A stretch of DNA of 64,000 nucleotides from Bacteroidales bacterium (lineage in GTDB: Bacteria; Bacteroidota; Bacteroidia; Bacteroidales; UBA932), in the NCBI GenBank assembly GCA_017619675.1, contig JAFZRX010000006.1, positions 2,616 through 66,615 of the forward strand, read 5' to 3'. Under the pieces are notes generated by a model, which was not told where the DNA came from, ran no database searches, and was given only the letters and a program-made list of their open reading frames with translations. The position numbers and the translations under genes are program-made. Position 1 is the stretch's first letter, and each line of letters starts with the position of its first letter. Shown in pieces: positions 51,829-58,656 of the stretch.

Positions 51829-53406
51829 ATGTACTTTTACGGCATGTTTAAAGAGCCCCAGTACGGAAGGACCCGCAACAGCCTGAGGAACAGCGCCACG
51901 GCGCTTATCCTCCAGGTTGTCGCCATGCTCATAGGGTTCTTCTCAAGGCGCATCTTCATCCGGGTCCTTGGAGTGGAGGTGATGGGCCTGAACACCACGG
52001 CCTCCAGTATCCTGGACTTCCTGAATCTTGCTGAACTGGGCATCGAGACGGCGGTAGCCGTCACACTATACAAGCCGCTCTTCAACAGGGACGAACAGTC
52101 AATCAAGGAAATTGTGGCCCTGCAGGGGCGCCTGTACCGTATCATAGGCACGTTCGTGCTTCTGGGAAGCCTGGTGGTGTTCTGTTTCATGCCGCGGATC
52201 TTCGGGAAGTCTCCCCTGCCTATCTGGTACGCATACGCCACATACGGAGTCCTGCTTTATTCATCACTGCTGTGGTATTTCTTCAATTACAAGAAGAACG
52301 TACTGTTCGCGGACCAGAAGAATTACAAGGTTCTCCTGTGCACCAAGCTGGTGGCTCTAGTGAAACTGATCCTTCAGACGCTTGCCGTCCTATATCTGGA
52401 CCACGGGTATATCTGGTGGCTTGCGCTTGAGGCTTTGTCCGCCACCGTAAGCGCCATACTCATAGGCATAATAGTCAACCGCAATTATCCTTTCCTCAAG
52501 GAAAAGGTACAGGTCACAAAGGCCTTGCGGGAGAAATATCCTGATATAATCCAGAAGACCAAATATATAGCCTTCCATAAACTTGGAGGATACGCCGTTG
52601 CCAAGTCCAGCCCAATCTTCATATACGCATTCACTTCACTTGCCGTTGTGGGCTGCTACGGCAACTACCTCATATTGACAACCAACCTCACTGCCATCCT
52701 CACGGCCCTGTATTCAGGAGTGTCGTCAGGCATAGGCAATATGGTTGTTGAGGGAAACAAGAAGCTTGTGATGAAGGTCTTCAGGGAACTGTTCTCTTCC
52801 AGGATGCTGATCGTGGGAGTATGCTGCCTGTGCCTGTGGTTCCTGACGGATCCGTTCGTAAGCATCTGGCTGGGGCCGGAATACGTACTCAAGCATACCA
52901 CGCTGGCCCTGATCATATTCCAGTTCTATATCAGCAACACCCGTAACGTGGTGGACGATTACCTGACCGCCCACGGGCTTTTCCACGATATATGGTCCCC
53001 TATTGCGGAGGCTGCCATCAACGTATGCCTGTCAATACTCCTCGGACGACGCTACGGCATTGACGGAGTTCTTCTTGGAGTGCTCATCAGCCAGCTGATA
53101 ATCACCTTCTCCTGGAAGCCTTTCTTCCTTTTCAGGAGCGCCCTGCACGAGCCGCTGTCCTTCTACATTACACTTTATGCCCGATGCCTTGTCCCCGGAA
53201 TAGTCGCCTTCGCGGCGCTGTACTCGCTGCTTCCGCGCCTGCCCATCGACCCTTCCGCCTCAATATGGAATTTCCTGATCTACGCCGTTGTCACCGGAGT
53301 GGCCGCCCTGGCCATTTACGGAGGCCTGCTGTCCATCTGGGAAGACGGCCTGAAGGATTTTACAACCCGAATTGTACGTGTTTTAAAAAGCAATCTGTTG
53401 CATTAA
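51829..53406 (+). CDS. Wzx-like oligosaccharide flippase (MOP/polysaccharide-biosynthesis-protein family)
   Basis: 525 aa and polytopic, with about 12-14 TM segments. N-terminal RNSLRNSATALILQVVAMLIGFFSRRIFIRVLG is typical of PST-family flippases. Confidence 0.65.
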   Translation: MYFYGMFKEPQYGRTRNSLRNSATALILQVVAMLIGFFSRRIFIRVLGVEVMGLNTTASSILDFLNLAELGIETAVAVTLYKPLFNRDEQSIKEIVALQGRLYRIIGTFVLLGSLVVFCFMPRIFGKSPLPIWYAYATYGVLLYSSLLWYFFNYKKNVLFADQKNYKVLLCTKLVALVKLILQTLAVLYLDHGYIWWLALEALSATVSAILIGIIVNRNYPFLKEKVQVTKALREKYPDIIQKTKYIAFHKLGGYAVAKSSPIFIYAFTSLAVVGCYGNYLILTTNLTAILTALYSGVSSGIGNMVVEGNKKLVMKVFRELFSSRMLIVGVCCLCLWFLTDPFVSIWLGPEYVLKHTTLALIIFQFYISNTRNVVDDYLTAHGLFHDIWSPIAEAAINVCLSILLGRRYGIDGVLLGVLISQLIITFSWKPFFLFRSALHEPLSFYITLYARCLVPGIVAFAALYSLLPRLPIDPSASIWNFLIYAVVTGVAALAIYGGLLSIWEDGLKDFTTRIVRVLKSNLLH

Positions 53407-53435
53407 TCAAAGCTTAGCAGTATCTTTATCTTAAT

Positions 53436-54548
53436 ATGGGCGAAAGGAAAACGGTAAATAAGGTTCTGTCGCAACTGACACAGGAAATACTGGAGTCCGG
53501 GGAGCGTCAACTTCTTGCTTTAGCCCTGTCCTCCGATGTTTCCCAGGAGCAGCTGGATGAATTCCTCAAAGGCTGGGATATAGAGGCGGCCCCCTTCCCC
53601 AGCGTCATCCTCCTGTCCTATCTGATGAAGACCAATCCGGAACTTTCTTTCCCGGATTCCATAATACCAAGGCTTAAAGGCGTGCTCAACTATTGCAGGT
53701 TCCAGAATATCAAACTGTACGCGAACTTCGCAAGGATAGCGGGCAGGCTCAATTCCCTGGAAATACCTTTCGTCATATTGAAGGGAGGGGCCATGAAGGC
53801 GTACCGCCCGGATTTCCCGCGCTGGATGGGAGACATCGACATCCTGGTAAGGGAAAGGGATTTCCACAAGGCGGCGGGCGCCGTGGAGGAACTGGGCTTC
53901 AGCCCGTTCCGCTGCGCCCACAGCTGGGACTTCCGCGTCGCGGGTACGGAAGAGAGCGCTCTGGACCTCCACAAGTTCATCCAGATGAACACAGGAAAGG
54001 AGCAGGCCTACAACGAAGGCCTTTTCGCGCGTTCTTCCGCCGTGAAGGTTGCCACCTGCGGGTGCCTCCTTCCTTCCCGCGAGGACATGGTATTCATCTC
54101 CCTGGTGAACCTTTACAGGAACCTTTCCGACAAGACCAGCACCGGCAGCGTGCTGAATACCTTCACAGACCTTCATTATCTGCTGGGGAACGGAGAATCG
54201 TTCAACTGGGATACGGTCTGGGACAGCGCCCGGAAGACTGGAACGGAGATCCAGATATGCGTGGCCGCCGCCTTTGTGTCCAACCTCCTGCCGCAGTCAT
54301 TCCCCAAGGAATTCCTGTCGGACTGGATGGACAGGAAGGAAGCGGAGCGTGACAGCGTCGAACTTCTGTATCAAAGGGAGATAATAAGCCCGCTAAGGGC
54401 GGAAATAGGCGTTTCTGACGTCATAAAGGCTATCAGGAGTATTCGCCCCTTCGGTCTATATATAAGGCGCAGGATAAGGCTGTTTTTCCTCAAAAGGGTA
54501 AGTCCTTCCGCAAGGAAGAGAATCCTCACCAATAAAGGCTTCATTTAA
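53436..54548 (+). CDS. Uncharacterised nucleotidyltransferase family protein (NTP_transf_5-like)
   Basis: 370 aa. FVILKGGAMKAYRPDFPRWMGDIDILVRERDF matches the hallmark lKG...R...DiDlLV motif of this family. Confidence 0.65.
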   Translation: MGERKTVNKVLSQLTQEILESGERQLLALALSSDVSQEQLDEFLKGWDIEAAPFPSVILLSYLMKTNPELSFPDSIIPRLKGVLNYCRFQNIKLYANFARIAGRLNSLEIPFVILKGGAMKAYRPDFPRWMGDIDILVRERDFHKAAGAVEELGFSPFRCAHSWDFRVAGTEESALDLHKFIQMNTGKEQAYNEGLFARSSAVKVATCGCLLPSREDMVFISLVNLYRNLSDKTSTGSVLNTFTDLHYLLGNGESFNWDTVWDSARKTGTEIQICVAAAFVSNLLPQSFPKEFLSDWMDRKEAERDSVELLYQREIISPLRAEIGVSDVIKAIRSIRPFGLYIRRRIRLFFLKRVSPSARKRILTNKGFI

Positions 54549-57018: not shown

Positions 57019-57994
57019 GATATCTGTAATCATTCCGGTATTCAATACTGAAAAGTACCTGGGCAGATGCCTGGATTCAGTCCTGGGACAGACTCTCGGG
57101 GACATCGAGGTTATCTGCGTGGACGATTGCTCCACAGACGGGTCAGCAGCGCTCCTTGCGGGGAGGGCGGCACAGGACGGCAGGATCAAGGTCATCGGGT
57201 TGAAGGAGAATTCCGGGCCTTCAAAGGCGCGCAACAGCGGGATCGAGGCGGCAGAAGGCAAATATGTTTACTTCCTTGATTCAGATGACTGGATCGATCC
57301 GGATTATCTGTCGCAGATGCTCCTGAAGGCAAATGAAACAGGCCGTGACGTGATAATCAACTGTAACTATGTAAAGGAGTACGACGGAACCGGGAAAAAG
57401 GAATACAGCACCAGGTTCGGCTTCTTGGAGGATGAAGCGCATGCGTATGATACTGCAACGGTTGAATTGATGTTCCCGCCGGTACTATGGGCCAGGCTGT
57501 ACAAGCGCAGATACTTGATTGACAATAATATATGGTTCCCGGACCTTAGAGGTGGCGGTGAGGACAATTACTTCACCACGCTGGCGGAACTGCCACTGGA
57601 GGACATCTATGTGTTCCGCGGACCGTACTATCATTATTATCAGCGGGACGACTCCCTTGCGCATCTGAAAACCGCCGGATATGACTTCATCAAGAGCTTC
57701 AGGGCTTTATATGATGAACTGCTGTCACGGGGGCTCCCGACGGAAGGGATCAGACTGTTCTACGCAGGTCCCCTGCTGATAGATTCGGAAGAGAAGTTCA
57801 ATTACATAAAGGATTTCCTGCAGGAAATCCGTCCGCAGGTGCTGAGCCATCAGGAAAGGTATATAGCCCTGGACCTGTATCTGCTGGAAGCGGTGACTTC
57901 CAGCGCTGATTATGCGGATTTCCTGTCACGCCACAACCCTAATATATCAATAGACTTTATCCGTAACCGGATGAGGCAGACCGCAAAGCAATGA
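57011..57994 (+). CDS. Family 2 glycosyltransferase (tandem paralogue)
   Basis: 327 aa. ISVIIPVFNTEKYLGRCLDSV...VDDCSTDGS...SGPSKARNSGIEAAEGKYVYFLDSDD. It overlaps the previous gene by 8 nt. Confidence 0.85.
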   Translation: MAEISVIIPVFNTEKYLGRCLDSVLGQTLGDIEVICVDDCSTDGSAALLAGRAAQDGRIKVIGLKENSGPSKARNSGIEAAEGKYVYFLDSDDWIDPDYLSQMLLKANETGRDVIINCNYVKEYDGTGKKEYSTRFGFLEDEAHAYDTATVELMFPPVLWARLYKRRYLIDNNIWFPDLRGGGEDNYFTTLAELPLEDIYVFRGPYYHYYQRDDSLAHLKTAGYDFIKSFRALYDELLSRGLPTEGIRLFYAGPLLIDSEEKFNYIKDFLQEIRPQVLSHQERYIALDLYLLEAVTSSADYADFLSRHNPNISIDFIRNRMRQTAKQ

Positions 57995-58656
57995 CACCGC
58001 TGGTTTCAGTTATAATGCCCGTGAAGAACGGCAGCAACTACATCAGGGAGGCTTTGGACAGCCTCCTGAAGCAGGGCTGCCGCCTGGAAATCATCGTGGT
58101 GGACGACGGTTCGGAGGACAATACGGCAGACATTGCAAGGGAGTATGGCTGCGTTGTTTTGTCACACGGATCTTCTTTGGGGCCTGTAGTGGCAAAGAAT
58201 ACGGGACTGAAGGCGGCCACCGGAGATTATGTGTTGTTCATGGACCATGACGACAGGATGCGGCCGGGCGCGCTGAAGGCGCTGTGCTCTGCCCTGGCGG
58301 AGGACGCCCAAGCCGCCGCCGTGCAGGCGAAGGTCCGGGACTTCAAGTCCCCGGACTGCGCCGACGCCACCGTTGCCGTCAGGCCTGAACCTTACTACGG
58401 ACTGTTTACCGGAGCAATCCTGATACGGCGTTCAGCCTTTGACATAATCGGGCCTTTCTCCACAGCGCAGACTGCCGGAGAGATAATTGACTGGACTGAC
58501 AGGATGCAACAGAATGGACTGGCTGTCAAGAAGATAGACCTGGTTTCCACGGACCGCAGGGTCCACGCAAACAATTTCGGGCGCACCAGGCGCATCCAGG
58601 AATTGAAAGACTATGCCGCCATCCTCAGGGCCAGGCTGGCCAAAACCACAAAATAG
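57991..58656 (+). CDS. Family 2 glycosyltransferase (short form)
   Basis: 221 aa. [21 protein letters not shown]...[10 protein letters not shown]...[25 protein letters not shown]. It has a 4-nt overlap with the previous gene. Confidence 0.8.

Follow-up and report, generated by a model that had tools for sequence, protein, structure and literature searches.

Lasso-peptide biosynthesis provides the closest described counterpart of the genes considered here. In lasso pathways, homologues of HPr kinase phosphorylate the C-terminal Ser hydroxyl of the precursor, and in the pseudomycoidin pathway a nucleotidyltransferase of the NTP_transf_5 type then extends this phosphate by one hexose or two (PMC8498205), a published precedent that an earlier, sequence-only reading of the DNA analyzed here had invoked. 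The leaders of actinobacterial lasso precursors, which bind B1-type RiPP (peptide synthesized by ribosomes and modified post-translationally) recognition elements (RREs), share a conserved YxxPxL motif (PMC6784204), and the lasso clusters of rumen Butyrivibrio also include nucleotidyltransferase, HPr kinase and family 2 glycosyltransferase (GT2) genes (PMC7533575). Among the approximately 8,000 "discrete lasso RRE" proteins retrieved in the RRE-Finder study, about half lack a lasso cyclase and peptidase and were treated as possible false positives (PMC7470986). Here, we describe a cassette of seven closely spaced plus-strand genes at positions 51829-58656 of a 64,000-nucleotide stretch of DNA (hereafter, the window) from a rumen Bacteroidales metagenome-assembled genome (GCA_017619675.1, contig JAFZRX010000006.1), in which a lasso-type trio, namely, a B1-like RRE protein, an HPr-kinase-like kinase and an NTP_transf_5 nucleotidyltransferase, stands together with a Wzx-like membrane protein and three GT2s. 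This cassette belongs to an old and widespread family of conserved operons, which probably build an exported sugar conjugate.

51829..53406, plus strand: Wzx-like polytopic membrane protein, putative flippase, 525 amino acids (aa) (weak NCBIfam WZX_like match; hydropathy)
53436..54548, plus strand: NTP_transf_5 nucleotidyltransferase-fold protein, 370 aa (Pfam PF14907; GG...DxD motif)
54550..55629, plus strand: P-loop kinase resembling HprK and phosphoenolpyruvate (PEP) carboxykinase (PEPCK), 359 aa (Hpr_kinase_C below cut-off; motifs; AlphaFold2 (AF2) model and Foldseek)
55642..56064, plus strand: PqqD-like RRE protein, 140 aa, whole open reading frame (ORF) (Pfam PqqD; Foldseek)
55642..55905, plus strand: RRE (PqqD / lasso B1-like) domain, residues 1-88 of the 140-aa protein (Pfam PqqD; Foldseek)
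55954..56013, plus strand: leader-like linker of the RRE protein, residues 105-124, FDQFIPVCKEYKDVQELLFA (motif register; predicted local distance difference test (pLDDT) values)
56014..56064, plus strand: conserved tail of the RRE protein, residues 125-140, DPIHEVSEEEGWKPEK, with the stop codon (conservation)
56074..57018, plus strand: GT2 glycosyltransferase a (GT2a), 314 aa, without a transmembrane segment (Pfam Glycos_transf_2)
57011..57994, plus strand: GT2 glycosyltransferase b (GT2b), 327 aa, without a transmembrane segment (Pfam Glycos_transf_2)
57991..58656, plus strand: small GT2 glycosyltransferase c (GT2c), 221 aa, GT-A domain only (Pfam Glycos_transf_2)

The spacers between these genes are, in order, +29, +1, +12, +9, -8 and -4 nt. 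The number, strand and spacing of the genes agree with the sequence-only reading, and the two motifs quoted there, lKG...DIDILV and GQRGKST...SDDY, are both present. The trio, which occurs in one copy in the whole 64-kb window, is indeed a lasso-type set by profile matches and Foldseek. The family assignments proposed from the sequence stand at profile level for NTP_transf_5, PqqD and the three GT2s, all above cut-off, but not for Hpr_kinase_C and WZX_like, which match below theirs.

The lasso B1/kinase/nucleotidyltransferase tailoring set (paeninodin, pseudomycoidin; PadeK/ThcoK/PsmK, PsmN) is the closest known system. The cassette shares with it the B1 RRE, the HPr-kinase-like kinase and the nucleotidyltransferase; the RRE family has lasso B1 proteins as its nearest structures and carries a leader-type [FY]xxPx[LIV] motif; and GT2 genes accompany the set in rumen Butyrivibrio as they do here. 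However, the cassette lacks three of the four features that define a lasso cluster: it has no cyclase, no B2 peptidase and no free precursor gene. Its RRE is extended by the leader-like motif and a conserved tail, and the module heads glycosyltransferase operons with glycan exporters. In the literature that was searched, which yielded only lasso-peptide papers and one phosphonate survey, there is no description of this gene set, and in that sense the operon type, a combination of known kinds of parts, is new.

The RRE protein looks like a lasso B1 protein fused to a leader and a "core". It matches Pfam PqqD above the cut-off (25.5 bits versus 23.4), its predicted model has a pLDDT of 82.8, and the best Foldseek matches of its RRE domain are TbiB1 (5v1u/5v1v) and TfuB1 (6jx3), with a probability of 1.0 and target TM-scores of 0.83-0.84. 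The nearest NCBIfam models of the family are lasso PqqD chaperones, matched below cut-off, and the architecture as a whole, RRE followed by the motif and the tail, is covered by no curated NCBIfam model that matched. The C-terminal third of the protein is more conserved than the RRE domain itself, with the consensus ...EYxDVQELLxADPIHEVxExxGWxPE; tail residues D125, P126, I127, H128, G135, W136 and P138 are at least 98% conserved among 64 sequences from several phyla, and DP[IV]H[DE]V...GWP is found in 108 of the best 150 representatives. In 59 of these 108 tail-bearing representatives, [FY]xxPx[LIV], the counterpart of the YxxPxL of lasso leaders, lies exactly 18 residues before DPIHEV. In the protein from the window, P110 and C112 are in register with the P and L of the motif, and the aromatic residue is one position off. 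Residues 101-120 are predicted to be structured (block-mean pLDDT of 86 and 74), and tail residues 126-137, with pLDDT below 50 in the monomer model, are predicted to be disordered. We infer that the leader-like segment docks, in cis, on the groove of its own RRE.

The tail contains no invariant Ser, Thr or Tyr, the Y115 position is occupied by Y, F or H across the family, and the C-termini are variable. The signature DP[IVL]H[ED][IVL] is confined to RRE proteins and occurs once per module. Proteins with two or three tandem RRE domains, namely, P0266, P0330 (about 280 aa) and P0274 (394 aa), have a single tail, and in a natural kinase::RRE fusion (P0282, 530 aa) the tail is degenerate. Genes split into an RRE and a separate tail peptide were considered and rejected, the short database matches of this kind (P0271, P0294, P0337 and others) having the look of truncated or chimeric sequences.

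The NTP_transf_5 protein matches its Pfam family well above threshold (PF14907; 88.4 bits versus a cut-off of 31.2, E = 7.5e-25) and contains LKGG...GDIDILV, the GG...DxD motif; among solved structures, it has no sequence match. The kinase-like protein is below the cut-off for Hpr_kinase_C (PF07475; 25.8 bits versus 33.3, 8.6e-6), retrieves HPr kinase marginally when its sequence is compared with those of solved structures, and has a weak precomputed match to PF27840 (ScmC). It contains ARGQRGKST...SDDY, the family alignment identifies H169, A184-R-G...G189-K-S-T and D208 as invariant, and its Walker A, His169 and D208 "DD" motif align with the P-loop and DD of HPr kinase 3tqf. The best Foldseek match of its AF2 model (pLDDT 92.3) is PEP carboxykinase, across both domains and the whole length (E = 5e-12). 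HPr kinase and PEP carboxykinase belong to the same fold superfamily, and, judging by the model, the kinase-like protein is a member of this superfamily that forms a separate family. At the level of fold, the two weak assignments, those of the RRE protein and the kinase, are settled by the structure predictions, which match lasso B1 and PEP carboxykinase, respectively. From the motifs that are present or invariant in them, both the kinase and the nucleotidyltransferase look catalytically competent.

The three glycosyltransferases match Pfam Glycos_transf_2 with E-values of 4e-44 (GT2a), 3.3e-40 (GT2b) and 3.8e-32 (GT2c). The best cross-phylum matches of GT2a are mostly GT2s likewise placed after an RRE gene, and GT2b has orthologues, 43-78% identical, in 23 loci, 22 of them from Bacteroidales. 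GT2c is the most conserved glycosyltransferase, with copies 45-76% identical in at least 31 of 72 loci from several phyla. Among the three window GT2s, it is also the nearest to every small GT2 of the distant loci except one; the exception, a 280-aa GT2 of the locus denoted L101 below, is itself reported as marginally nearer to GT2c than to GT2a. The best NCBIfam matches of GT2c are an MftF-like model (84 bits, cut-off 280) and TIGR04283, both below cut-off. The Wzx-like protein scores 31.5 bits (9.6e-8) with NCBIfam WZX_like, the cut-off being 300, and has no match in the local copy of Pfam; its orthologues in close relatives match Polysacc_synt (PF01943) weakly. At a strict hydropathy threshold, it has at least eight strongly hydrophobic segments, and the cassette enzymes have none. 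The gene is confined to a Bacteroidales sub-clade, where it is found in six species-level loci including the window.

A scan of GTDB with the RRE-protein alignment yielded 77 species-level loci, hosted by rumen and gut Bacteroidales, many Gastranaerophilales / Melainabacteria / Vampirovibrio, gut Alphaproteobacteria, Desulfovibrionaceae, Oxalobacter and Puniceicoccales. ORF calling and iterative searches place an HprK-like gene in 70 of them, NTP_transf_5 in 60 and GT2 in 71; the prevailing order is [GT2]-NTP5-HprK-RRE-GT2..., and most spacers fall in the range from -26 to +30 nt. When 1.84 billion representatives were searched with a profile of the RRE family, 3,304 matches were recovered, mostly of 130-160 aa and with nearly full-length coverage; 1,178 of these have E <= 1e-10, which corresponds to about that many clusters at 50% identity. 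The named sources of the distant branches include Thermoleophilaceae, Verrucomicrobiota, Terriglobales, Cyanobacteria, Chloroflexi and Thermodesulfovibrionales, and by such names the gene set spans at least eight phyla. Six longer distant loci contain these gene families, and in them the kinase was confirmed by hidden Markov model (HMM), except for the P0350 locus, for which there is a precomputed ScmC match and no DNA; a seventh, L095, is a short contig:

L103 (Terriglobales): RRE-HprK-GT2(243)-GT2(262)-GT2(234)-NTP5
L097: RRE-GT2-HprK-GT2-NTP5
L099: ABC2 permease adjoining RRE-HprK-GT2x3
L101: ABC2_membrane-ABC_tran-RRE-HprK-GT2s-GT4-GT2-epimerase-NTP5
L102: same core plus GT4 and GT10
P0350 locus: around the RRE gene, a ScmC-like kinase, two GT2s of ~228 aa, two GT4s and NTP_transf_5
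L095 (reached via P0266): RRE gene, HprK-like gene and two small GT2s

The constant parts of the family are, therefore, the RRE protein with its cis leader-like motif and tail, the HprK/PEPCK-like kinase, the NTP_transf_5 protein, seen also in distant loci L097, L101, L102 and L103, and small soluble GT2s, two or three in number. Next to them there is usually a glycan exporter, Wzx in the window and Wzm/Wzt-type ABC genes in other lineages: ABC2_membrane and ABC_tran lie directly upstream in L101, and ABC2_membrane is present in L099. The window cassette is this core set plus a Wzx-like exporter. Bacteroidales loci also encode MBOAT with a DltD-like protein, GtrII and YfhO, and other neighbors include GT8, GT4, GT32 and DUF4422 transferases, NAD epimerases, UDP-glucose dehydrogenase, FkbM methyltransferase and pyruvyl transferase.

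 In the Puniceicoccales loci L083 (7037-10429) and L084 (7575-10159), the NTP5-HprK-RRE trio stands alone, with no GT2 behind it, and in L083 the trio is preceded by a gene for a 245-aa protein with a prepilin-type N-terminal methylation motif. Three rumen Bacteroidales loci (L011, L012 and L033; for example, L033 1-20420) carry two kinase+RRE modules and a third kinase copy in a single long glycosyltransferase operon, in which MBOAT, a DltD-like protein and GtrII are encoded as well. A 324-aa radical SAM protein, present in 23 loci, and an aldo-keto reductase, present in 16, are recurrent in Gastranaerophilales and other non-Bacteroidales (for example, L085 15315-16289 and L056 18549-19604) and are fused into a 679-aa protein in L062 (15506-17545), a pairing that suggests an unusual sugar modification. 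Some loci, such as L043 (2712-4853 and neighbors), encode PEP mutase, a phosphonopyruvate-decarboxylase-like thiamine pyrophosphate enzyme fused to an iron-dependent alcohol dehydrogenase, and an aminotransferase-HAD protein, so that their glycan may be decorated with phosphonate. Genes for Maf/MptE-like proteins and pyruvyl transferase are found as well.

The sequence-only reading had found neither an asparagine-synthetase-like cyclase nor a transglutaminase-like leader peptidase, and had judged the gaps too small for a precursor ORF. The absence of the cyclase extends beyond the cassette: an E. coli AsnB probe gave 0 matches in the six-frame ORFs of the window and 0 in the 77 related loci, Asn_synthase does not appear in the Pfam results for neighbor representatives, and the single occurrence of SGGxDS in the 77 loci is in an unrelated gene 8 kb away in L057. 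The cassette has no leader peptidase, each of its seven genes belonging to another family; no transglutaminase-type peptidase model was run over the window, and no such peptidase is among the Pfam results for recurrent neighbors, one set of which comprised the top 25 families. The cassette spacers, at -8 to +29 nt, are indeed too short for a precursor gene, and when 1,604 small intergenic ORFs from the 77 loci, those of 15-100 aa lying outside large genes, were clustered, no family was shared across loci, the only clusters being an antisense artifact of the RRE gene and groups of local near-identical relatives. Neither a cyclase nor a precursor is apparent in the six longer distant loci. E. 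coli probes for WcaJ, WecA, WcaD and Wzc had 0 matches in the window; in the 77 loci, such single-sequence probes, which are weak for Wzy, found 1 WcaJ-like and 1 WecA/MraY-like protein, 0 Wzc and 0 Wzy. An E. coli WzxC probe missed the window's own Wzx-like protein, which shows how weak single-sequence probes are for divergent membrane proteins. By Pfam, there is no radical SAM gene in the cassette. An anti-phage defense system was considered and set aside, as PADLOC defense models had 0 matches among six cassette and neighbor proteins.

Three other kinds of systems invite comparison. The NCBIfam systems HPr-rel-A (TIGR04352 + TIGR04353) and SynChlorMet (ScmC + ScmD) likewise pair an HprK-like with a PqqD-like protein. 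However, the window kinase scores far below their models (HprK_rel_A 28.7 versus 200, ScmC 16 versus 125), the RRE protein has no match to their PqqD-partner models in NCBIfam, the radical SAM/SPASM partners are missing, and the conserved tail lies outside every curated model that matched; the cassette is not a member of either system. Surface-glycan loci with Wzx or ABC transporters, including the three-component arrangement of GT2, flippase and GT-C, share with the family the soluble GT2s, the Wzx-like or Wzm/Wzt-type exporter and a species-variable glycosyltransferase content, with YfhO, GtrII and MBOAT in the related Bacteroidales loci. In contrast to those, the cassette loci are essentially devoid of an initiating phosphoglycosyltransferase, Wzy, Wzc or Wza, and the constant element here is the kinase/nucleotidyltransferase/RRE trio. 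Mycofactocin loci (MftB RRE + MftF GT2) also combine an RRE protein and a GT2 in one operon, and MftF is the best NCBIfam match of GT2c. MftA is the mycofactocin precursor, with a near-invariant core, and the cassette RRE protein has a comparably near-invariant "core"-like segment. Unlike mycofactocin loci, the cassette lacks a radical SAM maturase, a peptidase and a separate precursor, and contains a kinase and a nucleotidyltransferase.

The reading that we favor, tentatively and with a probability of roughly 40%, is that the self-liganded RRE protein docks or activates the enzymes via its tail, and that these assemble a short, phosphate-containing glycan on a non-peptide acceptor, which is then exported. 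We infer that the set descends from a lasso tailoring module (B1, kinase and nucleotidyltransferase), with the cyclase, the peptidase and the free precursor lost and the leader fused to the RRE, so that the module would no longer need a precursor. The RRE protein, occupied by its own leader-like segment, would then be a non-catalytic adaptor or activator whose exposed DPIHEV...GWP tail docks the enzymes. The kinase might phosphorylate a hydroxyl on the acceptor, most likely a membrane-associated glycan intermediate; NTP_transf_5, by analogy with its pseudomycoidin relative, could add a glycosyl or nucleotidyl group to the phosphate; the GT2s would attach a few sugars; and Wzx would carry the product through the inner membrane. 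What the analysis shows is the gene content, the conservation, the folds, the motifs, the association with exporters and the lack of CIS linkage, whereas the nature of the acceptor, the chemistry and the part played by the tail are conjectural. The sequence-only reading had offered a novel exported glycoconjugate as its alternative, and it is this alternative that fits best. The absence of an invariant Ser, Thr or Tyr from the tail, the degenerate tail of the fusion protein and the exporters favor docking; in particular, degeneration of the tail once the RRE is fused to the kinase, as in P0282, is what a docking role predicts.

Several observations weigh against this adaptor reading. The leader motif is degenerate in the sub-family to which the window protein belongs (F-x-P-x-C), and in Gastranaerophilales it has no Pro. 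Most Gastranaerophilales loci have no exporter within 10 kb, and the Puniceicoccales loci have the trio without adjacent GT2s. An initiating phosphoglycosyltransferase is nearly absent from the 77 loci, so that a lipid-linked route is assumed. Finally, a strongly conserved, exposed tail fits a substrate "core" equally well.

That last point leads to the strongest rival, in which the RRE protein, a fused B1, leader and core, is itself the substrate, its own tail being the acceptor for a phospho-glycan or a small glycosylated product, either kept or released. The leader-core layout and the disorder of the tail favor this role: a leader-like motif at a fixed distance before a near-invariant segment is how RiPP precursors are laid out, and the tail is predicted to be disordered and the segment preceding it structured. 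Invariant cores are typical of cofactor-type RiPPs, such as PQQ and mycofactocin, and the near-invariant tail fits that type; GT2c finds the mycofactocin glycosyltransferase MftF, albeit below cut-off, as its best NCBIfam match; tandem RREs share a single tail; and no separate precursor was found in the 77 related loci or is apparent in the six longer distant ones. However, homologous lasso kinases target a C-terminal Ser, whereas this tail has no invariant hydroxyl residue and its C-termini vary; neither a protease nor an enzyme for release belongs to the conserved set; the single kinase fusion that was seen has a degenerate tail; and the Wzx and Wzm/Wzt-type exporters, together with the periplasmic GT-C or acyltransferases of many loci, point to a lipid-linked glycan and away from a cytoplasmic protein. 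We consider a self-substrate unlikely, if still a serious contender. Stated in full, the idea amounts to a new RiPP-like class, with RRE, leader and invariant "core" in one polypeptide, on whose own tail the kinase, the nucleotidyltransferase and the GT2s build a phospho-glycan, in more than 1,000 clusters from at least eight phyla; as a class, it appears doubtful, and it would mean protein-primed glycan synthesis or a scaffold-built glycosylated product.

The proposal of the sequence-only reading, that the RRE guides phospho- or glycosyl-modification to a peptide or protein with its gene elsewhere, conceivably a component or cargo of the neighboring contractile injection system (CIS), fares worse. 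The RRE is, structurally, a leader-binding B1 domain, lasso pathways use the kinase and nucleotidyltransferase families to modify peptides, there are peptide glycosyltransferases in the GT2 family (the SunS model is a weak match), and the groove of the window protein might be free, given the degenerate cis motif of its sub-family. Nevertheless, the main family carries the cis leader-like motif, which argues that the groove is occupied, there is no conserved small ORF near any locus, and up to three modules per locus (L011, L033), each tied to its own glycosyltransferases and sugar-modifying enzymes, look like glycan diversity and not like a single peptide target. A substrate encoded elsewhere is improbable, the RRE family itself carrying a leader-like motif and a conserved tail in cis. 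The genes around the cassette are as follows:

33141..51020: CIS island, missing from a close relative and thus an indel (blastn versus L004; CIS families inside)
49372..51006, minus strand: CIS_TMP tape-measure gene (Pfam)
51019..51801, minus strand: DUF3108 protein, divergent neighbor (Pfam DUF3108, 1.9e-13)
58659..60968, plus strand: GH95 glycoside hydrolase with a lipoprotein-like signal (Pfam GH95, 8.6e-158)

By blastn, positions 1-6409 of the related locus L004 match window 26715-33140, and L004 6464-16421 matches window 51021-60968, at 74-78% DNA identity. The alignment breaks cleanly around window 33141-51020, and these 17.9 kb, absent from L004, are therefore an indel. It contains every CIS gene, from the gene at 33198 through the sheath, tube, spike and baseplate genes to the tape-measure gene, and its junctions are intergenic, after an alkaline phosphatase gene and before DUF3108, with no obvious repeat on a quick look. 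In L004 and L005, where the kinase is 79% identical, DUF3108, the whole cassette and GH95 are all kept, and alkaline phosphatase and TonB-receptor-like genes stand where the window has the CIS. No CIS tape-measure gene lies within 10 kb in any of the 76 other species-level loci, so that the neighborhood survey proposed with the sequence-only reading finds CIS_TMP homologues in 1 of 77 loci, that is, in this genome only. The placement of the cassette next to the CIS is an accident of the 17.9-kb insertion; with no conserved genomic linkage to CIS genes, a role in CIS accessory functions or cargo modification was rejected, and the CIS version of the trans-acting idea is essentially excluded. A 285-aa gene in the island, at 48523-49380 before the oppositely oriented tape-measure gene, has a DUF6734 annotation only (precomputed).

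The least successful reading, that this is an ordinary capsule or O-antigen locus with a lasso-like trio that has no joint function with the glycosyltransferases, draws on loci rich in GT2, GT4, GT8, GT32, sugar-nucleotide enzymes and acyltransferases, with a content as species-variable as that of surface-polysaccharide loci, but is very improbable and, by conservation, largely refuted, as the trio and the small GT2s are kept as an overlapping or near-touching block in at least eight phyla, a kinase-RRE gene fusion exists, and the 77 loci lack the Wzy/Wzc hallmarks (matches to E. coli probes: Wzc 0, Wzy 0, WcaJ-type 1).

The flanking genes have separate histories. The divergent DUF3108 neighbor reported from the sequence is real; the gap that separates it from the cassette is 27-66 nt, depending on the choice of start codon. 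DUF3108 and the tape-measure gene do not form the unit they had been taken for because the boundary of the indel runs between them. DUF3108 adjoins the cassette also in the CIS-less relatives L004, L005 and L014 and is absent from the other loci; it is outside both the conserved system and the CIS, on the cassette's side of the indel. The GH95 gene starts 2 nt after GT2c, encodes a protein with a single N-terminal hydrophobic segment that ends in Cys, and follows the cassette only in close relatives; it is probably not part of the cassette system. A secreted fucosidase-type hydrolase right behind a cytoplasmic glycan-building operon is an oddity in itself. Farther away, window 505-31609 has the content of a typical rumen polysaccharide degrader, with GH127-like, GH9 and GH97 enzymes, esterases, a Memo/AMMECR1 fusion and a TonB-receptor-like gene with DUF4249, and 505-1878 encodes an aldo-keto reductase fused to a 4Fe-4S dicluster domain.

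The operon family gives at least part of the cyclase-less "discrete lasso RRE" orphans a concrete conserved context, that of a kinase/nucleotidyltransferase/small-GT2 operon with exporters, in hosts as different as soil Acidobacteria, Cyanobacteria, rumen Bacteroidales and gut Gastranaerophilales. The system is widespread and compact, six genes making up the L103 set. If the leader indeed acts in cis, the RRE protein would be a natural counterpart of the leader-enzyme fusions made by RiPP engineers, in which the substrate no longer needs a leader, and glycan chemistry would have recruited machinery for peptide tailoring; should the tail be the acceptor instead, the glycoconjugate would be protein-primed and of a new kind. 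Either way, the bacteria concerned are abundant, associated with hosts and for the most part uncultured, and their product is likely to be a glycan that is secreted or displayed on the surface.

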